This document shows, piece by piece, positions 7,702 to 17,402 of a DNA stretch of 17,402 bases. The stretch lies in the IMG/VR virus record IMGVR_UViG_2617270979_000005, positions 1-17,402 of that record; one strand, written 5' to 3'. The notes below the pieces were generated by a model, which had not been told where the DNA came from, searched no databases, and was given only the letters and a program-made list of their open reading frames with translations. The stretch comes from a virus. Taxonomy: Duplodnaviria; Heunggongvirae; Uroviricota; Caudoviricetes. The position numbers were made by a program, and so were the translations under genes. Positions within the stretch are counted from its first letter, which is position 1. Every line of letters starts with the position of its first letter.

Positions 7702-8388
7702 TCACTCCTTCTCTTCTTTTCCGTAGTGGAGTTGGCCAATTTTGATAAGAGGGCGTCCCTGAGATTTGCGGTGTAGATTGGTATCGCGCAGAGAATACAC
7801 ACAGCCACAATATTCCTGCTGATAGAATTTTTCGCGCTTGCTGATTTCAATCATACGGGACGAGCCGCCCTGCTTGCGCCAGTTATAATCCCAGTACACC
7901 ATACCCGGATAATGCGCAACAGCTCGCCGCCCACACTCGTTAACCTGCTGCATATTTTTCCAGCGTGAAATGCCCAGTGAACTGCTGATCACACTGAAAC
8001 CATTTTCAGCAGCGTACAACGCTGTCCGCTCAAAACGCATGTCAAAACACATGGTACAACGGATCCCCCTCTCAGGCTCCCATTCCATTCCTTTGGCACG
8101 TTCAAACCAGTTGTCGGTGTCGTAATCAGCATCGATAAACGGCACGCCGTGTTGTTCAGCAAAGCGAATATTTTCATCCTTACGAATTAAATACTCTTTC
8201 TGAGGATGAATGTTCGGGTTGTAGAAAAAGATGGTGTAGTCGATTCCCGAGGCCTGAAGCGCCTCCATCACTTCACCGGAACATGGAGCACAGCAAGAGT
8301 GCAGTAGTAGTTTGTTTGCCCCGTTTGGGAGTTCCAATTTAGGCCGTTTGAAATCAGCAATAGTCATAAATATTTTTATTGGGGTCAT
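7702..8388 (-). CDS. queH: QueH-like protein (DUF208, epoxyqueuosine reductase family)
   Basis: 228-aa ORF (ATG 8388; alternative ATG 8367; neither has a strong SD); family-defining motifs '[11 protein letters not shown]', '[10 protein letters not shown]' and 'YCGCVYS'. Family call from memory of DUF208. Confidence 0.75.
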
Positions 8389-8541
8389 GAAAATAGCACA
8401 GAGTGTAGCATCAGAGCAGGGCTATCGGGAATATATGTCTAAATCTGGTAATATCTGGTTTTGACGCAAAGCGGACAACCACGCTGGCTCTACCCTGCGC
8501 CATGAAAATGTCAATTCACATCTGAACTAATGCTCTTTAAT

Positions 8542-8937
8542 CTAGTAACGTCTAAAATACCTAACATTTCCTTGATAAAATGTCAGTACACGCTGCATAG
8601 CTTCGCTCTTCCGGCACTCGCGACAGATTATATTCAGGCGCCTGTCGTAGCGGCGTATTTCTCCGTCTGGTAACTTTCGAATCAGTGTCGGGTCAGCAGC
8701 CTTCTCCGGTGTCTTACGCCATACGCGATACGCCTGCTCTGATGGAAATACCCCGCAATCACAGAGCCAGACATCACCACTGGCCGCAAGCGCACCAGAT
8801 AAACGACGAATAGCGGTCTTACTGACACCCGTTTTATCTGCCAGTTGTCGAAAAGTTTCTCGTCCGCTCAGGCGCACGAATTCCACAATGCGCGCCTTCA
8901 CTTCTTCCCGCTCTTCTGGTGTAAATACTTTTGCCAT
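8542..8937 (-). CDS. Hypothetical nin-region protein (131 aa) with HTH-like segment and Cys cluster
   Basis: ATG at 8937 preceded by GGAGG (5-nt spacer); 'RQLADKTGVSKTAIRRL' HTH-like; CDC…CREC cysteines. The track start at 8952 is a TTG. Confidence 0.6.
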   Translation of the reverse strand: MAKVFTPEEREEVKARIVEFVRLSGRETFRQLADKTGVSKTAIRRLSGALAASGDVWLCDCGVFPSEQAYRVWRKTPEKAADPTLIRKLPDGEIRRYDRRLNIICRECRKSEAMQRVLTFYQGNVRYFRRY

Positions 8938-8952
8938 AAGCGCCTCCGGCAA

Positions 8953-9723
8953 TCACTTTTCCGACACAATACGACCGGATGAATCGACAATCTGTCGAAC
9001 AATATCCCGGTGCTTGTACAGCTCCCGCAGCGCGGCGCAGACTCGCTCCCACTTCTGAACCTGACCTTTTGCCCGGCGCAGCTCGCGGTTAGCCACATGC
9101 AGCGATGGTAAAATCAGACCATCCGGATGTTTTCTGGTGAACGACGGCTGTGACTGCACTGTGACCGCCACACTTTCAGTTTTTATTTCTTCCTGTGTTT
9201 CCGCTTCCCGGACAGGTAACGCAATACCTGCTGGCTGAGGAATGGCTTTACCATCCGTTTCCGCTACGGATGCAGCTTCCGGCTCTGCCGGTAAATCAGC
9301 GCCCGGTATGCAGTAACGAAATTTACCGTTCTGATTTACGCGTGCCAGGCGCCCCGTTGCTGTTACGACCGCCAACGTGGAAGCAACCTTGCGAATGCTA
9401 ACACCGAACTTATCCGCCAGTTCCTCACACGTTTTAGCCCCATCCTGACAGATAAACTCAATCATCATGTCCGCGGTAACTTTTTGTTCGACCTCCCCGG
9501 TCAGCATATCCTGTGCTTCAGATTTTACTGGCCGCTCTTCGGTTACCCGGGATTCACCTTCGCCAGCCAGAAACCAGGTGTGACCAGTTTTATCAACGAC
9601 GCCATTTCTTTTGAGTTCCCACAGCTCGTTGACAGCCTCTTCACGACTGATTCCAAGGCGAGCTGCCACCACATGTGAAGAGGCTTTTTTCAGTGCTTTC
9701 AGTGCGTCAAATACGGTTTCCAT
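8953..9723 (-). CDS. Hypothetical nin-region protein (256 aa), acidic, possibly DUF1627-like
   Basis: ATG at 9723 preceded by GGAGG (8-nt spacer); N-terminal winged-helix-like segment 'AARLGISREEAVNELWELKRNG'. DUF1627 assignment is a weak recollection. Confidence 0.55.
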   Translation of the reverse strand: METVFDALKALKKASSHVVAARLGISREEAVNELWELKRNGVVDKTGHTWFLAGEGESRVTEERPVKSEAQDMLTGEVEQKVTADMMIEFICQDGAKTCEELADKFGVSIRKVASTLAVVTATGRLARVNQNGKFRYCIPGADLPAEPEAASVAETDGKAIPQPAGIALPVREAETQEEIKTESVAVTVQSQPSFTRKHPDGLILPSLHVANRELRRAKGQVQKWERVCAALRELYKHRDIVRQIVDSSGRIVSEK

Positions 9724-9756
9724 TAATATTTCCTCCGACAAAATCGTTTCTCAGAT

Positions 9757-10419
9757 TCAAATAAAACCAGCTGCCTTCCGGCGTTCGTATTCCTGTTTCA
9801 GCCGTTCAATTGGCGTTGGCCCTTGCGGGTGTTTCGCCCCTTCCAGTTGTCGTCGCACTGGCGGAACACTCATCCCGTTACCAACATGCTTTGCCCATTT
9901 CGTCAGTTGCCGTTCCGCAAGTCGTTTTAACTCACCCTGCGTCATCTGGCGCTCAATCCCTCTGGTACGCATTTCGAGGCAGATGTGGTACAGCACAGGC
10001 TGTGGCCACGGGTATTTATCACTCCCGTCGTATCGCCAGGATTCATTGCGCCAGCGCCGGTACTCTTCCATCACTGCATCCACCGTAAGACCAAATGGAT
10101 TTGCCCCACTCTCCGAAATCAGTGCAACAAACTCAGCCAGGTCCGGGGGCCACGTTTCACCCGCCCGGCAGCGGTCCATGCACTGACGGCAGACCAGCCG
10201 GATTTGCTGTTCAGTCATCGCGCCAATCTGGGCAATCCAGAGCTTCGAAGGTGCGGCCCCGTTCTTCTGTGTCCAGCGGTTCGAATACACCTCCCCCATA
10301 AGCTCCCACAGCTTCCAGGCCGTTTCCGTTGCTGATAAATCCGTTGTCACGTTCCCACTGTTCGCGTGCTGCCCGGATTTCCTGAACTGCCCGTGATGCC
10401 GTGCCACCTGATGCTGCAT
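9757..10419 (-). CDS. Replication protein P-like (lambda P family helicase loader); start uncertain
   Basis: 220-aa ORF; C-terminal half aligns by eye with remembered lambda P (…YPWPQ…/…YPWKS…, …TEQQ…/…TMEQV…); ATG 10419 has an AGGGGG RBS but overlaps the O-like gene by 209 nt; alternative ATGs at 10299 and 10218. Confidence 0.65.
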   Translation of the reverse strand: MQHQVARHHGQFRKSGQHANSGNVTTDLSATETAWKLWELMGEVYSNRWTQKNGAAPSKLWIAQIGAMTEQQIRLVCRQCMDRCRAGETWPPDLAEFVALISESGANPFGLTVDAVMEEYRRWRNESWRYDGSDKYPWPQPVLYHICLEMRTRGIERQMTQGELKRLAERQLTKWAKHVGNGMSVPPVRRQLEGAKHPQGPTPIERLKQEYERRKAAGFI

Positions 10420-11227
10420 GGCTTACCCCCTTGCTGACTGGTTTTACCTGTGCCCTGACGTGCTGCACGTGGCGGGCAAATTTCTGCTCCCACTGAACCT
10501 GCGTGAAAACCTTCCCCTCCGCCATCCAGTAATCCCGGAATGCGGCAAGCTCTGCAGGTGTAAATTCCGGCTCAGGCAGAGCCATACCCCACACTGCTGC
10601 CCGTTGTCGAAAATCCGACGACAGCTGCCAGACAGTAGTCATCGAAAATTTCCCGATCGGTTCGCTCAGGCCGTCCAGGTATTCAGGTTCGGCTGTCTGC
10701 AACGGCGCACCATGCGACTCACCGGTTGGAGCACTCTCGCGCATGCGCGCGTTATGTGTGGGGTTTAATTCTGTATCTGTATCTTTATCTGTCGTGACTT
10801 GTCGTGACATGTGCGTGACATTTCGTGACGCGCCGTGACAATCGCCATTTTGTTCCCGCTTTCTTTCCCTCTCACGCTGCGCCCTCTTGCGCTCTGCCGG
10901 AGATTTTGCGGTTTGCGAAATATTGCCGTTGTCCTCTTTAAGCACCTGGCGTTTTTCCCATCCAGTGATTAAATCACCATCAAGTACCCGCCCCTGCATC
11001 GTCTGCAAAATTGAATCAATTACCTCTTCTGTCACGTCGAGCGCACTTGCCAAATCTTCTGTCGTGACATCAATGTGACCTCGCGTGACATTTCGTGACG
11101 CGCTCACCAGGAGGTGGATATACACTGCCATCACTGTTGCAATTGGCTGCCCTGACACCCTGGCAATTGTTCGCCACTTAGGGTCATTTGGCATGTCATG
11201 CCATAATCTGAGCCAGGCGTTAGCCAT
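10211..11227 (-). CDS. Replication initiator (O-like, iteron-binding replisome organiser)
   Basis: 338-aa ORF from ATG 11227 (GAGGTG RBS; track start 11233 is GTG); contains two arrays of CGTGAC iterons; sits immediately upstream of the P-like gene as in lambda O-P. Confidence 0.7.
   Translation of the reverse strand: MANAWLRLWHDMPNDPKWRTIARVSGQPIATVMAVYIHLLVSASRNVTRGHIDVTTEDLASALDVTEEVIDSILQTMQGRVLDGDLITGWEKRQVLKEDNGNISQTAKSPAERKRAQRERERKREQNGDCHGASRNVTHMSRQVTTDKDTDTELNPTHNARMRESAPTGESHGAPLQTAEPEYLDGLSEPIGKFSMTTVWQLSSDFRQRAAVWGMALPEPEFTPAELAAFRDYWMAEGKVFTQVQWEQKFARHVQHVRAQVKPVSKGVSHAASGGTASRAVQEIRAAREQWERDNGFISNGNGLEAVGAYGGGVFEPLDTEERGRTFEALDCPDWRDD
10791..10840. repeat. Iteron array A: five CGTGAC-core repeats at 10-11 bp spacing (candidate origin), inside the O-like gene
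   Basis: CGTGAC at 10793, 10803, 10814, 10824, 10834; preceded by tatct repeats (10770-10790). Confidence 0.65.
11061..11103. repeat. Iteron array B: four (C/T)GTGAC-core repeats at 10-11 bp spacing, near the 5' end of the O-like gene
   Basis: CGTGAC at 11063, 11084, 11094 and TGTGAC at 11074; the 21-mer GCGTGACATTTCGTGACGCGC (11083-11103) is an exact copy of 10813-10833. Confidence 0.6.
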
Positions 11228-11298
11228 ACTCACCTCTTCTGATACCGAATCTTTTTACTCACGAGTTGCCGGAAGCGATTCGATATGGCTATTGTCAG

Positions 11299-11724
11299 TC
11301 AATGTACTGCCACAGCATTTCCTGCCGGGCCACCACGGTTCATCTGATTGAAACCGGCGATTGCCACTGCGACAAAATCATCAGCGTCTCTCACCAGTCG
11401 CTCCCGCGTCTCCACCAGCTCCCGAAAATAAGCTGAACTGTGGCTGCGCATTCTGGCCACCAGCAAAGGTGGCATTGCCTTTTCGATCGCTGGTAACAAC
11501 GCCTGAATTTTTTCAACTGCATCAGGGGTGTCTTTCTCTACCCAGCGGAAAATTTTCTGGGTATTACGGGCCAGGGCTTCCGGATGGCTGTCGTCGTACA
11601 GTTCCGGGAACGTCATCCCCAGTTCGAAATAAGTCCGGGCTATTTCAGCTGCTGGAACTTTCTCACCGTCTGGATACGCCCAGGCATTCATTGCCATGCG
11701 GATGTGTTCATGCTTGATTTTCAT
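11299..11724 (-). CDS. YdaT-like protein (Rac-type, proposed cII-like regulator/toxin)
   Basis: 141-aa ORF; ATG 11724 with GGGGGTGA RBS; N-terminus 'MKIKHEHI' resembles remembered Rac YdaT; directly downstream of the Cro-like gene. Confidence 0.65.
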   Translation of the reverse strand: MKIKHEHIRMAMNAWAYPDGEKVPAAEIARTYFELGMTFPELYDDSHPEALARNTQKIFRWVEKDTPDAVEKIQALLPAIEKAMPPLLVARMRSHSSAYFRELVETRERLVRDADDFVAVAIAGFNQMNRGGPAGNAVAVH

Positions 11725-11983
11725 GAATCACCCCCGCCTCTGGTTGTGTGTTAGCCTGATACTCGACAGGTAAGCCGTCGGTTGGGTTGGGATAAGTACT
11801 GCCATCAATCTCGTGCGGAGTTACTATCCAGCCTGTTGCTTCGCACCAGCGTAAAATTTTTTTCCCCGTAAGTTTCGCCCGTCCGGTAATGACATGGCTT
11901 ACCATCCCTTGGGTTACCCCAACAATTTCAGCAAAATGCTTCTGAGTTATACCGGAATGATGCAAATATTCTCCAAGATTCAT
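11708..11983 (-). CDS. Cro-like HTH protein (YdaS family)
   Basis: 91-aa ORF; ATG 11983 with GAGGTGA RBS; HTH 'ITQKHFAEIVGVTQGMVSHVITG'; divergent from the repressor gene. Confidence 0.7.
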   Translation of the reverse strand: MNLGEYLHHSGITQKHFAEIVGVTQGMVSHVITGRAKLTGKKILRWCEATGWIVTPHEIDGSTYPNPTDGLPVEYQANTQPEAGVIHENQA

Positions 11984-12090
11984 TGTTCACCTCATGTGAT
12001 GTCATCACGATCATTAATAGCATTGTTATTTTTAAAAGTAAATAGCATCACTATTTCAAAGAGATTAATAATCTTATTAGAATTGAAGGT
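11984..12090. promoter_or_regulatory. Divergent immunity control region with operator palindromes
   Basis: Perfect 13-bp palindrome GTGATG-T-CATCAC (11996-12008); two imperfect copies of AATAGCA-N-TGCTATT (12016-12030, 12041-12055); AT-rich -10/-35-like hexamers on both strands (tentative). Confidence 0.55.
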
Positions 12091-12591
12091 ATGAAAAGAA
12101 AATCCCTGTCAGAGATCGACCTGCAAGCCGCCCAGAGACTGAAAGAAATCTGGACGGCGAAAAAAAATCAACTAGGGTTAACCCAAGAGCGTGCGGCAGA
12201 AATTCTGGGATTTTCGACACAGGGAGCTGTAAGCCATTATCTAAATGGTCAGACACCTTTAAATCTTGAGGCTGTTATCAAGTTCGCAGGGTTGCTGCAA
12301 GTTCCTCCCGAGTCAATCAGACCAGATATGGCCGAGTTGTTACAAATTGTAAGGATGTATCCCCAAGAATCTGGGGAGGACAATGTTGTCACTATATCTG
12401 CAGATATGGAACAATCGGAAAACGAACTTCCGTTTAATATAGACCCCATGGAGCGGGATTTGCTCCAGACGTTCAGGGCTTTCCCCAAAGAAGATAAAGA
12501 GAAAATGCTTAAGGAAATGAAGGAGAAAAAAGAATCAATTGAAGAAATCGTTGCGCGATGGCTAGCTGCGCAAAAGGGTCGTCGCGCCTAA
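12091..12591 (+). CDS. Prophage repressor, XRE-family HTH (RacR/DicA-like, no S24 peptidase domain)
   Basis: 166-aa ORF; HTH 'LGLTQERAAEILGFSTQGAVSHYLNG'; divergent from the Cro-like gene; 5 of 10 Arg codons are AGA/AGG and 2 Ile codons are ATA. Confidence 0.8.
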   Translation: MKRKSLSEIDLQAAQRLKEIWTAKKNQLGLTQERAAEILGFSTQGAVSHYLNGQTPLNLEAVIKFAGLLQVPPESIRPDMAELLQIVRMYPQESGEDNVVTISADMEQSENELPFNIDPMERDLLQTFRAFPKEDKEKMLKEMKEKKESIEEIVARWLAAQKGRRA

Positions 12592-12608
12592 TCTGAGGAG
12601 GTAAAAAC

Positions 12609-12800
12609 ATGAGTACAGCCCTTTCCCCGATAATTTCTGAATTTGAAACAGTCGAACAAGAAAACAGCTATAACGAATGGTTGCGAACCAAAGTGGCAGC
12701 AAGCCTCTCAGATCCCCGTCCTGCAATTCCACATGACGAAGTAATGGCTGAAATGGAAAACCTTATTGCTCAATTAGCTGCAACGAACAGGAGTGAGTAA
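12609..12800 (+). CDS. Type II antitoxin (ParD/RHH-like) paired with the downstream ParE toxin
   Basis: 63-aa ORF; GAGGAGG RBS at 12594-12600; stop overlaps the toxin start (TAATG); family assignment by partner and size only. Confidence 0.65.
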   Translation: MSTALSPIISEFETVEQENSYNEWLRTKVAASLSDPRPAIPHDEVMAEMENLIAQLAATNRSE

Positions 12801-13090
12801 TGCTGCCCATTTTATGGCTACCTTCTGCACGTGATGATTTACGTCAGATCGTAGCCTATATTGCTAAGGAAAACCCTCCCGCTGCACGTAGACTAAAAAT
12901 ACGCATTGAAACATCAGTTTTGTCACTTACTGAACACCCTTATCTGTACCCACCGAGCGAAAGAGTTCCAAGTCTTCGTGAGATAGTGACTCATCCTAAC
13001 TACATAATACTTTACCGAGTAACAGCATCTAACATCGAGATCGTAAATGTAGTTCACTCACGAAGACAGTATCCAAACAAAACCTGTTAA
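12800..13090 (+). CDS. ParE/RelE-superfamily toxin
   Basis: 96-aa ORF; ParE-like pattern 'LWLPSARDDLRQIVAYIAKENPPAARRL … ILYRV … IEIVNVVHSRRQ'; translationally coupled to the antitoxin. Confidence 0.8.
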   Translation: MLPILWLPSARDDLRQIVAYIAKENPPAARRLKIRIETSVLSLTEHPYLYPPSERVPSLREIVTHPNYIILYRVTASNIEIVNVVHSRRQYPNKTC

Positions 13091-13103
13091 TCCTTCCTGT
13101 CAA

Positions 13104-13128
13104 CAACCACCTTCGGGTGGTTTTTTTC
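13104..13128 (+). terminator. Rho-independent terminator after the toxin gene
   Basis: AACCACC-TTCG-GGTGGTT hairpin followed by TTTTTTT (13121-13127). Confidence 0.7.
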
Positions 13129-13138
13129 TTGCCACGAT

Positions 13139-13153
13139 AATAGCACTGCTATT
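13139..13153. promoter_or_regulatory. Operator: perfect palindrome AATAGCA-C-TGCTATT upstream of the ydfA-dicB operon
   Basis: Perfect 7-1-7 inverted repeat; same motif as the two imperfect copies in the immunity control region. Confidence 0.55.
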
Positions 13154-13359
13154 TACATAATTAAATAGTAGTGGTATTGTTCATTCATCAACCCACCCCG
13201 CCCCACAGAACGCCAGGCAATACTTCGAGTTACCCGGCAGTGGTCAGGGGTTAAGTAGCCAGCCCGAGGCGTATGAACATGACGGCGGGAACACTTTATA
13301 TAACAGCGCAGCAGTTTTTTAGTTCCGCTACCCCGGCGTTAAGGGGAAATGAGGTCAGC

Positions 13360-13515
13360 ATGGATACTATCGATCTTGGCAACAATGAATCTCTGGTGTA
13401 CGGCGTGTTTCCCAACCAGGACGGCACATTCACCGCGATGACGTATACCAAAAGCAAAACGTTTAAAACCGAAAATGGTGCCCGTCGCTGGCTGGAAAGA
13501 AACTCAGGTGAGTGA
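13360..13515 (+). CDS. ydfA: YdfA/YdaF-like small protein (51 aa)
   Basis: ATG 13360 preceded by AAGGGGAAATGAGG; size and position match the first gene of the Qin dicB operon (from memory). Confidence 0.65.
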   Translation: MDTIDLGNNESLVYGVFPNQDGTFTAMTYTKSKTFKTENGARRWLERNSGE

Positions 13516-13516
13516 T

Positions 13517-13645
13517 ATGGATTTCGACACAATCATGGAAAAGGCTTACGAAGAATACTTCGAAGGCCTTGCCGAAGGCGAAGAAGCTCTCAGCTTCAGT
13601 GAGTTTAAACAGGCGCTTTCCAGCTCGGCAAAATCTAACGGCTGA
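13517..13645 (+). CDS. ydfB: YdfB-like small protein (42 aa), absent from the ORF track
   Basis: Hand-translated: ATG 13517 (AGGTGA RBS) to TGA 13643-13645 gives MDFDTIMEKAYEEYFEGLAEGEEALSFSEFKQALSSSAKSNG; size and position match ydfB. Confidence 0.6.
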   Translation: MDFDTIMEKAYEEYFEGLAEGEEALSFSEFKQALSSSAKSNG

Positions 13646-13674
13646 TAAGCGAAACAGCACCGCGAGGAATCAGT

Positions 13675-13893
13675 ATGCAGAAACGAGAACCCGTCATCAT
13701 CGCGCCAGACTATACCGATGATGAACTTTATGAGTGGATGCACCAGAAAATTAATGCAGCGCAGGATCTGAAATGGGCCAATGAAGCCAGGGCTAAGCAG
13801 GCTGAAAATCTGTCCGCTCTGGAGCAGGATATCACTAATCTGGAAAAAGCAGCGGCATTAAGCATTGCCAGAATGATTACATACCCGCGTTAA
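13675..13893 (+). CDS. ydfC: YdfC-like protein (72 aa)
   Basis: ATG 13675 with GAGGAA RBS; size and position match ydfC. Confidence 0.65.
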   Translation: MQKREPVIIAPDYTDDELYEWMHQKINAAQDLKWANEARAKQAENLSALEQDITNLEKAAALSIARMITYPR

Positions 13894-13915
13894 TAGCTAA
13901 CCAACGAGGCTAATA

Positions 13916-14290
13916 ATGGAATTTAAAGATTTACCAATGCAATTCCAGGAAATGGCAGCGAATATAGTTCGTTCCCAACTGGCGACTCTTGACCTGAGTA
14001 CCGTAGAAAAAGAAACCATCGACAATATATCCGGTAACGTACGCCGAGCCTTTATCGGGCTGTACGAAGAGAAGCAGCTCTCTGATAACCAGGATTTACA
14101 TGAAAAATACTTTCTGGAATTAATGGACATCATTAATAAAGGATTTGGCTTGTTAATGAAAAAGAAAGGGATTCGAATAGCTCCCCTTGAAAATCATTTT
14201 ACAGCAAGCAGTATTAATTCCTGTGATTTAAAGCATCACACATCCGATGGGAAAGTTGAATCAAACAACAAAATATCGATTAATCATTAA
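13916..14290 (+). CDS. Hypothetical protein (124 aa), AT-rich insertion between ydfC and DicF
   Basis: ATG 13916 with GAGG RBS (6-nt spacer); 4 of 11 Ile codons are ATA; no recognisable family. Confidence 0.6.
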   Translation: MEFKDLPMQFQEMAANIVRSQLATLDLSTVEKETIDNISGNVRRAFIGLYEEKQLSDNQDLHEKYFLELMDIINKGFGLLMKKKGIRIAPLENHFTASSINSCDLKHHTSDGKVESNNKISINH

Positions 14291-14596
14291 TTTATTCACA
14301 GGTGAGGTAGAGTGCGTGCGCCGGACACGGATAAGAATCCGGCACTGACAGTTTACTGAAAAGGATATATCCCTGAAAAGTCAGGGCATAACACGAAAGC
14401 GCCCGGAGAAGTTAGTCTCTCTGTATAGGTCGTCGTTAAATTTAATTCGATCGTGCGCTTCCGGTTGTGGCAATCCGCGAAATGGCGCGGCGGTAAGTAT
14501 GGCGGGGTTATTCCTTCCCCCGCTGAGGACACCGGGTTGTCAGGTTGACCATACGCTTAAGTGACAACCCCGCTGGCAACGCCCTCTGTTATCAAT

Positions 14597-14649
14597 TTTC
14601 TGGTGACGTTTGGCGGTATCAGTTTTACTCCGTGACTGCTCTGCCGCCC
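14597..14649 (+). ncRNA. dicF: DicF small regulatory RNA
   Basis: 53-nt stretch TTTCTGGTGACGTTTGGCGGTATCAGTTTTACTCCGTGACTGCTCTGCCGCCC followed by TTTTT matches the remembered DicF sequence; located between ydfC-like and dicB as in Qin. Confidence 0.85.
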
Positions 14650-14823
14650 TTTTTAAAGTGAATTTTGTGATGTGGTGAATGCGGCTGAGCGCACGCGGAA
14701 CAGTTAAAACCAAAAACAGTGTTATGGGTGGATTCTCTGTATCCGGCGTTAATTGTTAACTGGTTAACGTCACCTGGAGGCACCAGGCACCGCATCACAA
14801 AATTCATTGTTGAGGACGCGATA

Positions 14824-15012
14824 ATGGAAACGTTATTACCAAACGTTAATACGTCTGAAGGTTGTTTTGATATTGGTGTTCTGCTCAGTAACCGGGAGTT
14901 TACGGAAGATGCCATTAAGATGAGAAAATATGAACCTTATCTTCTCAATGATAATTCCATACTTTCCAGAATTGCCCTTCTTGAACTTGGTATTATCGGA
15001 GAACAGCAGTGA
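14824..15012 (+). CDS. dicB: DicB cell-division inhibitor homolog
   Basis: 62-aa ORF 'METLLPNVNTSEGCFDIGV…'; N-terminus matches remembered DicB (MKTLLPNVNTSEGCFEIGV…), C-terminus diverges; GAGGA RBS. Confidence 0.8.
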   Translation: METLLPNVNTSEGCFDIGVLLSNREFTEDAIKMRKYEPYLLNDNSILSRIALLELGIIGEQQ

Positions 15013-15197
15013 CTTCAGCATTTGCACTGGTGATGACCGTTTTTCTTATAACGGGTGAGCCACAAAATGTGATTACCGGAATTTATGACAGTAAGTCATC
15101 CTGCATTCAGGTAAGGGACGAACAAAAAATCCCCGGTGAATGCCTCCCGTTAAAAAAAGTATCGCTGAACCTGAATAACGAAATACCGGCTGGATAA
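15009..15197 (+). CDS. ydfD: YdfD-like small protein
   Basis: 62-aa ORF with GTG start overlapping the dicB stop; 'MTSAFALVMTVFLITGEPQNV…'; position matches ydfD. Confidence 0.7.
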   Translation: MTSAFALVMTVFLITGEPQNVITGIYDSKSSCIQVRDEQKIPGECLPLKKVSLNLNNEIPAG

Positions 15198-15291
15198 CCC
15201 GCCAGCCATATTAACGCCATACCAACGGATTAAAAATGCCACAATGGCAGGGATTCGTTCACCCTGAAATCTGTAATGAGGTTAAAACAAA

Positions 15292-17402
15292 ATGAGTAAA
15301 GTCTTTATTTGCGCCGCCATTCCGGACGAACAGGCAATAAAGGAAGAAGGTGCGTCGCTGTAGCCACTGCCATTGAAGCCGGTGATGAACGTCGCGCCCG
15401 CGCAAAATTTCACTGGCAATTCCTGGAACATTATCCGGCTGCTCAGGACTGCGCTTATAAATTTCTTGTCTGCGAGGATAAACCCGGTATACCCCGCCCT
15501 GCCCTCGATTCCTGGGATGCTGAATATATGCAGGAAAACCGCTGGGATGAGGAGTCTGCTTCCTTTGTCCCGGTTGAGACTGAATCAGATCCGATGAACG
15601 TCACTTTTGACAAGCTGGCCCCTGAAGTACAGAACGCTGTCATGGTTAAGTTCGACACATGTGAAAACATCACCGTTGATATGGTGATTAGCGCACAGGA
15701 ATTGTTGCAGGAAGACATGGCAACATTCGACGGCCATATCGTTGAAGCGTTGATGAAAATGCCAGAAGTTAACGCTATGTATCCGGAGCTTAAGCTGCAT
15801 GCCATCGGGTGGGTTAAGCATAAATGTAAGCCTGGTGCCAAATGGCCCGAAATTCAGGCAGAGATGCGCATCTGGAAAAAACGTCGCGAAGGTGAACGCA
15901 AGGAAACCGGAAAATACACGTCTGTTGTTGATCTCGCCCGCGCCAGAGCCAATCAACAGAACACTGAAAATTCAACAGGAAAAATCAGCCCGGTCATTGC
16001 TGCCATTCATCGCGAATACAAGCAGACATGGAAAACACTGGATGACGAACTGGCCTACGCTCTCTGGCCTGGTGATGTGGATGCCGGAAACATTGACGGC
16101 AGCATCCATCGCTGGGCAAAAAATGAAGTTATCGACAACGACCGCGAAGACTGGAAGCGTATCTCGGCATCAATGCGCAAACAGCCTGATGCCCTTCGCT
16201 ACGACCGCCAGACTATTTTTGGCCTTGTCCGTGAACGTCCGATCGACATTCACAAAGACCCTGTGGCACTGAACAAATACATTACTGAATACCTGACTAC
16301 AAAGGGCGTGTTTGAAGATGAAGGAAGAAATCAGAGCGCAACTGATACTCTCTCGTCGCCAGTACCAGAAACTGATGCAGTGGAAACGGCAATTCCGGAC
16401 AACGAAAAAACCGAATGCAAAGTGGAAGTCGAACCATCTGTAGAGCGTGAGGGGCCGTTCTACTTCCTCTTCACCGACAAGGATGGCGAAAAATACGGTC
16501 GCGCAAACAAACTTTCTGGTCTGGAAAAAGCACTGGCCTTGGGAGCTACGGAAATCACAAAAGAGGAATACTTCGCACGTAAAAACGGCACGTACTCAGG
16601 TTCACAACAAAATACTGGTGCATCTGACACGACCGCACAACCAGAGCCGGTAAAAGTTACAGCTGACGAAGTAAACAAAATTATGCAGGCAGCCAATATC
16701 AGCCAGCCTGACGCCGATAAGTTGCTTGCTGCCTCTCGCGGAGAATTTGTTGCAGGGATTAGCGACCAGAATGATCCGAAATGGGTTAAGGGGATCCAGA
16801 CCCGCGATTCTGTAAACCAGAACCAGCATGAATCGGAACGGAACTACCAAAAAGCGGAACAAAACAGCCCAAATGCGTTACAAAACGAGCCAGAAACGAA
16901 ACAGCCTGAACCAGTGGCGCAACAGGAAGTGGAAAAAGTCTGCACCGCCTGCGGTCAAAGCGGTGGCGGCAACTGCCCTGATTGTGGCGCGGTGATGGGT
17001 GACGCAACATACCAGGAAACATTCGATGAAGAGAATCAGGTTGAAGTTCAGGAAAATGATCCGAAGGAAATGGAAGGCGCTGAACATCCACACAAGGAGA
17101 ATGCTGGTAGCGCTCAGGATCACGCCAGCGATAGTGAAACTGGCGAGACGGCAGATCCCTTAATTACGATGAACGGTCATCACGTTATCACATCCACCAG
17201 CAGGACGTGTGACCATCTAATGATCGACCTTGAAACCATGGGAAAAAATCCTGATGCCCCGATTATCTCAATAGGTGCAATATTTTTCGATCCGCAAACC
17301 GGAGATATGGGACCGGAATTTAGTAAGACTATCGATCTGGAAACTGCTGGCGGGGTCATTGATCGGGACACCATTAAATGGTGGCTTAAGCAATCACGCG
17401 AA
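15292..17402 (+). pseudogene. RecE/exonuclease VIII-like gene (YdfE-like N-terminus), 3'-truncated by the window, with an apparent frameshift near codon 20
   Basis: ATG 15292 (GAGG RBS) opens a 23-codon frame ending at TAG 15361-15363; the adjacent frame (positions divisible by 3) is open from 15300 to the window end (hand-translated, about 700 codons, no stop). That frame contains a CxxC-x9-CxxC zinc ribbon (16941-16985) and ends in a DnaQ-like motif 'MIDLETMGKNPDAPIISIGAIFFD'. A single-base indel in 15300-15360 would fuse the frames. Confidence 0.6.

Follow-up and report, generated by a model that had tools for sequence, protein, structure and literature searches.

The DNA analysed here is a stretch of 17,402 nucleotides (positions 1 to 17,402 of the IMG/VR virus record IMGVR_UViG_2617270979_000005; hereafter the window), which carries the immunity region of an Escherichia coli lambdoid prophage. 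E. coli chromosomes match the window at 99.9% identity, and at least 80% of the segment 11250-13400 is present in 72 of 5426 complete E. coli genomes (~1%). The region 11000-14200 was annotated by means of open reading frames (ORFs), domain searches, matches to solved structures and the RefSeq annotation of the best match (Table 1). At its centre are two divergent genes, one encoding a repressor and the other the Cro-like protein YdaS, and the region between them contains repeated sites of dyad symmetry. The repressor gene heads a three-gene operon in which it is co-transcribed with genes for a PaaA-type antitoxin and a ParE-type toxin, as is characteristic of the PaaR subtype. The stem of the terminator that closes this operon is kept in relatives, and on the far side of the operon a second cluster of the same sites is found at a predicted promoter. 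The subject of this analysis is the 15-bp palindrome that recurs in both clusters, and its probable role as the operator of the prophage switch.

Table 1. Genes, predicted promoters, candidate operators and other features of the immunity region (positions in the window).
Feature	Positions	Strand	Basis or remark
DnaT-like/O-like replication gene	10211-11233	-	ORF and domain search
ydaT, CII-like activator gene	11299-11724	-	Structure match and domain search
ydaS, Cro-like gene, 91 aa	11708-11983	-	HTH_3
YdaT box TTGATTttcatgAATCAc	11714-11731		Over ydaT start codon and ydaS end; one mismatch to published box
Intergenic region ydaS/repressor, 107 bp	11984-12090		
PR, predicted	12014-12042	-	-35 TTTACT (12042..12037), 17-bp spacer, -10 TATTAA (12019..12014); homology to PL
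OR1 AATAGCATTGTTATT	12016-12030		1 mismatch to AATAGCANTGCTATT
OR2 AATAGCATCACTATT	12041-12055		2 mismatches to AATAGCANTGCTATT
PRM, predicted	12055-12083	+	TTCAAA, 17-bp spacer, TAGAAT; consensus scan
Possible weak third site (OR3?) ATTAATAATCTTATT	12064-12078		Over PRM spacer and -10; 5 mismatches
Repressor gene, 166 aa	12091-12591	+	Helix-turn-helix; structure and domain matches
paaA-like (PaaA2-like) antitoxin gene	12609-12800	+	Structure and domain matches
parE-like (ParE2-like) toxin gene	12800-13090	+	Structure and domain matches
Intrinsic terminator closing the repressor-paaA-parE operon	13105-13122, with T run (to 13129)	+	
OL2 AATAGCACTGCTATT	13139-13153		Perfect copy of AATAGCANTGCTATT
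PL, predicted	13152-13180	+	TTTACA, 17-bp spacer, TATTGT, TG before -10; consensus scan
OL1 AATAGTAGTGGTATT	13164-13178		2 mismatches to AATAGCANTGCTATT; fourth copy
PL operon start: ydfA (13360-13515, ATG 13360), then ydfB, ydfC, an ORF, DicF	13360-14649	+	
DicF small RNA	14598-14649	+	76.7 bits, over gathering threshold
dicB and exonuclease gene	Farther downstream of DicF		RefSeq annotation of best match

The palindromic word AATAGCANTGCTATT reads AATAGCA-N-TGCTATT, with a core of AATAG-N5-CTATT, and four good copies of it occur in the window, confined to two 40-bp stretches. These form two tandem pairs, OR1/OR2 between ydaS and the repressor gene and OL2/OL1 beyond the terminator, both with a centre (start-to-start) spacing of 25 bp. 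With up to 3 mismatches allowed, 5 matches were found in the window, compared to 0.88 +/- 0.84 in 200 shuffles, none of which (0/200) reached 5. The initial annotation, made from the sequence of the window, had reported the palindrome in three copies, two imperfect ones between the Cro-like and repressor genes and a perfect one (13139-13153) behind the toxin-antitoxin terminator and before ydfA. All three are where it had placed them (the imperfect pair at 12016-30 and 12041-55), and the terminator and ydfA were confirmed as well; the total has to be raised to four, the copy at 13164-13178 having been overlooked.

The intergenic region might contain a further, degenerate site. Where the repressor is 78% identical, the candidate listed in Table 1 reads ATTAGCAATCTTATT, with 3 mismatches; the PRM -10 equally explains why its right half is conserved, and the site is retained only as a possible weak OR3, in the 15-bp frame. 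A 14-bp palindrome, TAATAAtcTTATTA (12066-79), was rejected as third operator, its half-sites being 3 bp closer than those of the main sites and its left half not being conserved.

The positions of PR were derived from its gap-free alignment to PL, in which minus strand 12002-12057 pairs with plus strand 13137-13192 and 31 of 48 positions are identical (hand count from OR2/OL2 onward); the PR hexamers are conserved in relatives. PR is predicted to face leftward, to ydaS-ydaT and the replication genes, with a start near 12005-12008, and PL is predicted to face rightward, to ydfA-ydfB-ydfC-dicF-dicB and the genes beyond, with a start at about 13187. Operators lie over the -35 and -10 of the predicted outward lytic promoter and against the -35 of the predicted maintenance promoter PRM. 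OR1 overlaps the spacer and -10 of PR, and OL1 overlaps the -10 of PL. OR2 overlaps the PR -35 by 2 bp, as do the last 2 bp of OL2 the PL -35 (TTTACA). OR2 also adjoins the PRM -35, ending at its first base, and is centred at about -42/-43 relative to the predicted PRM start; in lambda, OR2 holds the equivalent position relative to PRM. The PRM start is predicted at about 12090/12091, that is, at the repressor ATG, and since the PRM -10 ends 7 nt before this ATG (12091) a leaderless or almost leaderless repressor mRNA is predicted. A Shine-Dalgarno-like GAAGG found 1 nt from the ATG is not conserved, and reads GGATG in relatives with 78%-identical repressors.

Conservation of the sites was assessed in related loci. 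A scan of IMG/VR with the repressor yielded 46 loci, of which 44 have repressors 78-100% identical to that of the window (including two frameshifted copies), whereas the remaining 2 share only the repressor C-terminal domain. Counts of 45 given here refer to the 44 loci plus the window. The initial annotation had staked its reading on the palindrome being present in homologous control regions, and this is what was found: the four sites are present in all 44 related loci, and all are in register in 45/45. OR1, for which there are 5 variants, is located at -75 from the repressor ATG throughout (45/45), with positions 1-4 and 12-15 (AATA/TATT) invariant. The 10 variants of OR2 differ only at positions 6-10, with the outer AATA/TATT again constant, and in four loci OR2 is a perfect palindrome; OR sites in relatives were taken by position alone. 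At PL, the picture is sharper. OL2, found in 45/45 loci, forms a conserved island amid diverged, indel-rich flanks (30 distinct PL sequences); the spacers between terminator and OL2 and between OL2 and OL1 diverge with indels, whereas the operators and the TTTACA/TATTGT hexamers stay conserved. Relatives with 89-90%-identical repressors have a perfect OL1 (AATAGCAGTGCTATT), and the start-to-start spacing of OL2 and OL1 is 25 bp in 39 of the 45 loci.

Some loci show local irregularities. In L026-L033 and L043, which have 78%-identical repressors, the OL2-OL1 spacer is a poly-A tract of variable length and the sites are 24 to 28 bp apart. The repressor gene is frameshifted in L025 (3145-3643) and L044 (2605-3101) and ydaS is truncated in L037, with all four operators intact; these copies may reflect decay of cryptic prophages or sequencing error. 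No relative was found in a contig scan of genomes with the repressor as query, and the operator strings had no match in the literature searched. Megablast against isolated phages returned flanking modules only, the immunity region being absent.

The repressor itself is made up of two domains with different matches. Its N-terminal 90 residues align with the N-terminal domain of lambda CI (E ~1e-9), and the alignment takes in the basic arm at the N-terminus as well as the helix 2-3 region. For residues 107-162 there is a match to the C-terminal portion of the NCBIfam DicA model with an E value of 1.5e-7, far below the full-length cutoff (31 bits for the full-length model vs a cutoff of 101 bits). 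This C-terminal domain also aligns with the C-terminal ends of repressors of 133-134 aa encoded at the head of other paaA-parE loci, and it contains the signature of the DicA/PaaR type, ...LLQTF.AFP.ED.E.ML.EMK.KK......RWLAAQKGRRA. The S24 peptidase domain of cleavable repressors was not found in the 166-aa protein by a Pfam search, which gave only HTH_3 and HTH_31. Repressor residues E33 and E37 (encoded within 12091-12200 of the window) align with the acidic residues E34 and D38 of lambda CI, which we take to be its positive-control patch; this would fit activation of PRM. The helix-turn-helix (HTH) of YdaS closely matches that of the repressor (TQKHFAEIVGVTQGMVSHVITG vs TQERAAEILGFSTQGAVSHYLNG), with recognition helices TQGMVSHVITG and TQGAVSHYLNG across the pair. 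The likeness of the two HTHs suggests that YdaS recognises the AATAG operators too, in the way that lambda Cro shares those of CI, and YdaS very probably uses the 15-bp operator of the repressor.

The operator word changes with the N-terminal domain of the repressor. Loci that have the same C-terminal domain and other N-terminal domains display other words: AACAGTTTTT in L048 and L049 and ACTTTAAAAGT in L050, each common to OR and PL, and ACAACC repeats in L046. These paaA-parE or ydaS-ydaT loci (of the L046, L048 and L050 types) encode 133-134-aa repressors with a shared C-terminal domain and different HTH domains. The repeat words are located within 1964-2071 and 2980-3095 in L048, within 1957-2072 and 2981-3095 in L050, and within 3831-3940 in L046, the contig of which stops short of PL, so that the repeats are visible in the intergenic region alone. 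The published operator consensus of PaaR2, the repressor of prophage CP-933P, consists of 18-bp inverted repeats of the GTTTAGTAA type (PMC8630535). Neither the word of L048 nor that of L050, a PaaA2/ParE2-like locus, matches this consensus, and the same holds for L046; thus, several immunity types exist within the repressor family. A pattern scan for two operators and a -35 additionally picked up L053 (IMGVR_UViG_3300012940_001438, a metagenomic contig). The L053 repressor has an N-terminal domain 36% identical to that of the window, a similar recognition helix (SQGNLGHYIKK) and a different C-terminus, and its repressor-cro intergenic region (870-998) contains three AATAG-N5-CTATT sites at start-to-start distances of 25 bp and 39 bp. 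The 17 other single-hit contigs from the scan are mostly AT-rich and lack a relative of the repressor or YdaS; these were discarded as chance matches.

Published precedents exist for such control. In CP-933P, footprints of PaaR2 and YdaS lie in the paaR2-ydaS intergenic region, and the two proteins repress PR933P as well as PL933P beside parE2 (PMC8630535), and in prophage Qin, DicA represses dicCp and dicBp, upstream of ydfA (PMC10448788, PMC3441716). Together with the statistics, conservation, promoter overlap, protein homologies and the covariation of operator word and domain, these precedents make it likely that the 15-bp palindrome is the operator of the CI-like prophage repressor on the lytic and dicB-operon promoters, in a switch of the lambda/Qin/CP-933P type. 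The initial annotation had envisaged an operator system composed of the 15-bp palindrome and a separate 13-bp palindrome, with one repressor controlling both the lytic promoter and the dicB-type operon. Conservation, promoter overlap, the change of word with domain and the precedents support control by a single repressor and the 15-bp part of the system; the 13-bp part could not be upheld (see below).

In the mechanism that we propose, repressor dimers would fill OR1/OR2 and OL1/OL2, probably cooperatively, and both outward promoters, PR and PL, would be shut off. With PR and PL blocked, the replication genes and the DicF/DicB division inhibitors would be kept silent. The dimer bound at OR2, against the PRM -35, would stimulate the weak PRM in the manner of lambda CI, and the degenerate third site over PRM may provide negative autoregulation or act as a target for Cro. 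YdaS would compete at the same sites and thereby flip the switch, and YdaT, at its own box, would drive a PRE-like promoter; in CP-933P, YdaT activates such a promoter, and PaaR2 is reported to be an octamer (PMC8630535). Given this octamer and the DicA/PaaR2 type of the C-terminal domain, the 2+2 sites may be bridged by an OL-OR loop of ~1.1 kb. Induction would need an antirepressor or a Cro switch, since the repressor is without a RecA-cleavable domain. The analysis shows the sites and their conservation, their overlap with promoter-like hexamers, the protein homologies and the change of operator word with the DNA-binding domain; binding, activation, looping and transcription starts are what we infer for this scheme. 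A more far-reaching and rather doubtful proposal is that the repressor is naturally chimeric, with a DNA-binding domain of the lambda-CI type and an oligomerisation domain of the DicA/PaaR2 type, and that its octamer would bridge exactly two OR and two OL sites and loop out the 1.1-kb segment with its own gene and the ParE toxin operon. If this is true, the chimeric octamer would amount to a minimal form of the long-range loop of lambda, independent of RecA and with the previously undescribed specificity AATAG-N5-CTATT.

Several observations weigh against the operator reading or limit its reach. PR was not called by the consensus scan, because position 6 of its -10, TATTAA, is A and not the usual T. 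The scan detected 4 promoter-like sites in the region compared to 3.2 expected, and promoter calls are thus weak on their own. The whole of 12016-12090 is well conserved among relatives, so that conservation in the intergenic region singles out the sites less clearly than it does at PL. The pattern used to collect the PL sites in relatives was anchored on AATA...TATT and partly imposes their outer invariance, yet 45/45 loci matched. The candidate third site, with its 5 mismatches, is poor. Finally, the proposed octamer, loop and activation of PRM are extrapolations from what is known of PaaR2 and lambda.

Other explanations of the 15-bp sites have to be considered. Instead of serving both the repressor and YdaS, the sites might be a target of just one of these regulators, or of the PaaA-ParE complex in a classical toxin-antitoxin autoregulation. 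Classical type II toxin-antitoxin operons are indeed autoregulated by the antitoxin (PMC8630535), the sites flank the toxin-antitoxin operon on both sides, and preferences of the Cro vs CI kind are unreadable from sequence. This is nevertheless unlikely, as the 63-aa antitoxin matches only the 33-residue toxin-binding module of PaaA2 and has no DNA-binding domain, and the CP-933P operon is regulated by PaaR2, not PaaA2 (PMC8630535). Moreover, the operator word follows the repressor N-terminal domain while paaA and parE stay similar, and the HTHs of YdaS and the repressor are nearly the same. We consider it very improbable that the repeats have no protein-binding function, PR and PL being duplicated AT-rich promoters and the palindromes by-products or chance. 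PR and PL do align gap-free over ~48 bp, and the region is AT-rich and rich in palindromes; however, the observed match count was reached by no shuffle, dyad symmetry is kept while the centre bases drift, and the inter-site spacer diverges where the sites do not. In addition, other immunity types have other symmetric words in the same places, and the half-site is retained in the distant homologue L053. It is hardly credible that the OL2/OL1 pair acts as a nucleic-acid hairpin (a second terminator or attenuator) instead of as protein sites. The interval 13144-13173 was listed by a scan as terminator-like, with 12 pairs, and the arms 13139-55 and 13162-78 are 88% complementary, but any palindrome in two adjacent copies necessarily makes such an inverted repeat. 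The hairpin has only 3 G-C pairs and a poor T tract, a strong terminator is already present 20 bp upstream, the same pair of sequences occurs at PR, where no terminator is expected, and the predicted PL start is downstream of the stem. An operator for the repressor, very probably shared with YdaS, is the explanation we prefer for all four sites.

The 13-bp palindrome GTGATGTCATCAC (GTGATG-T-CATCAC, 11996-12008) is a different matter. Its sequence, its perfect symmetry and its place by the Cro-like ribosome-binding site are as described in the initial annotation; it is found in a single copy, 2 nt away from GAGGTG (11988-11993, minus strand), which is the Shine-Dalgarno sequence of ydaS, and would occupy about +1 to +13 of the transcript predicted for PR. 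The window contains 13 perfect palindromes of this sort (6-bp arms, odd centre), compared to 4.8 +/- 2.3 expected, and ~13% of shuffles of the 107-bp intergenic region hold at least one palindrome with 6-bp arms, so GTGATGTCATCAC is not beyond chance. As an RNA hairpin in the ydaS leader it is weak (-4.5 kcal/mol, z 0.63), and by eye it is neither a CRP site, the TGTGA-N5-TCAC spacing being wrong, nor a LexA box, as it is without CTGT-N8-ACAG. The published YdaT box is TTGATT-N6-AATCAA at the ydaS/ydaT junction (PMC9986795); in GTGATGTCATCAC, by comparison, TGAT and ATCA are separated by 3 nt and the place is intergenic, and it was rejected as a YdaT box. The YdaT of the window is 95% identical to PDB 3C4R and ~85% identical to CP-933P YdaT (8BT1), and its box at the ydaS/ydaT junction (Table 1) is kept as TTGATTTTCATGAATCA[A/C] in loci of at least three immunity types; thus, this box travels with ydaT and not with the repressor.

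The initial annotation had suggested that the 13-bp palindrome is bound by the Cro-like or YdaT-like protein. That GTGATGTCATCAC is a separate functional operator for YdaS or the CII-like YdaT might be argued from its perfect symmetry between the PR -10 and the ydaS Shine-Dalgarno sequence, from a second palindrome with the same outer bases (GTGATTAAATCAC, at 10965), and from Rac, where the footprint of YdaT in the racR-ydaS intergenic region covers the promoter and the ribosome-binding site of ydaS (PMC11879457). We regard this as quite unlikely. The palindrome is not conserved with either protein: its position reads GTGATGTCATTAC in 8 loci, 6 of which have an identical YdaS, GTTATGTGACCAT where the repressor is 89-90% identical and GTGATGTGTTACC where it is 78% identical, whereas the YdaS recognition helix is invariant throughout. 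Similarly, L034 and L049 encode a YdaT 100% identical to that of the window, and the palindrome is absent. The YdaT box at 11714-31 has a different geometry and is conserved across immunity types, and for the YdaT of CP-933P, which is the closer homologue, binding to the paaR2-ydaS region is reported to be absent (PMC11879457). Nor is GTGATGTCATCAC statistically remarkable. The occurrence of the 13-bp palindrome in the ydaS 5' leader of some lineage members is most likely incidental; a lineage-specific role is conceivable.

Elsewhere in the region, the ~180-nt leader from the PL -10 to ydfA (13181-13360) is near-identical in L048, L049 and L050, in spite of their other repressors and operators, and the boundary of the immunity module is therefore directly after the PL -10. 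The conserved leader (176 nt) was rejected as a structured RNA: its fold is no more stable than that of shuffles (z 0.5), and it has no Rfam match. Directly 3' of DicF, at 14647-14856, there is an STnc100 match of 38.7 bits, below the threshold of 47. Inside the O-like/DnaT-like replication gene there are perfect 13-bp palindromes, GTGATTAAATCAC at 10965-10977 and AATTGAATCAATT at 11009-11021, as well as several (C/T)GTGAC repeats at 11030-11110; these palindromes and repeats may be origin iterons.

The locus represents a new immunity specificity in a switch of an ordinary kind, and what is known of lambdoid switches is unchanged. What has been gained is a defined operator word, site layout and set of likely promoters for an uncharacterised immunity type, one that has a ParE toxin operon as well as the cell-division inhibitors DicF/DicB under its control. 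Heteroimmunity among the many paaR-paaA-parE prophages can thereby be predicted, and a clean 2+2 operator system is provided for looping tests of DicA/PaaR-type repressors.

Among known systems, CP-933P has the same gene order (ydaT, ydaS, intergenic region, repressor, paaA, parE, terminator, PL) and homologous antitoxin, toxin and YdaT, and the C-terminal domain of the repressor is of the type seen in the repressors of other paaA-parE loci. Both have operators in the intergenic region and at the promoter beside parE (predicted here). The repressor gene was demonstrated to be leaderless in CP-933P (Jurenas et al. 2021, PMC8630535) and is predicted to be so here. However, the DNA-binding domain here is lambda-CI-like and the protein has 166 aa compared to ~133 aa. 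The operators, AATAGCANTGCTATT here and GTTTAGTAA-type there, are not the same word, and the sequence of the window suggests two strong sites per promoter, whereas three or four are reported for CP-933P. Qin likewise has a short repressor with a related C-terminal domain and no RecA-cleavable domain, a divergent Cro-like gene, and a second operator-controlled promoter upstream of ydfA-dicF-dicB (predicted here). The DicA operator Oc is TTGTTAGTCATAACTAACAA (PMC3441716), in contrast to AATAGCANTGCTATT here; the N-terminal domain of DicA resembles P22 C2, and there is no paaA-parE between the Qin repressor gene and dicBp. With lambda, the window shares a homologous N-terminal domain that likewise begins with a basic arm, and the same topology (PR / PRM-repressor-accessory genes / PL). 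Tandem operators ~24-25 bp apart over the -10/-35 of PR and PL (predicted here) and a site beside the PRM -35 centred near -42 are further points in common, and lambda cI, like paaR2, is leaderless (PMC8630535). Unlike lambda CI, the repressor here is without an S24 autocleavage domain; the 15-bp operators are of other sequence, with only two clear sites per operator region, the accessory genes are paaA-parE and not rexAB, and the CII analogue is YdaT.

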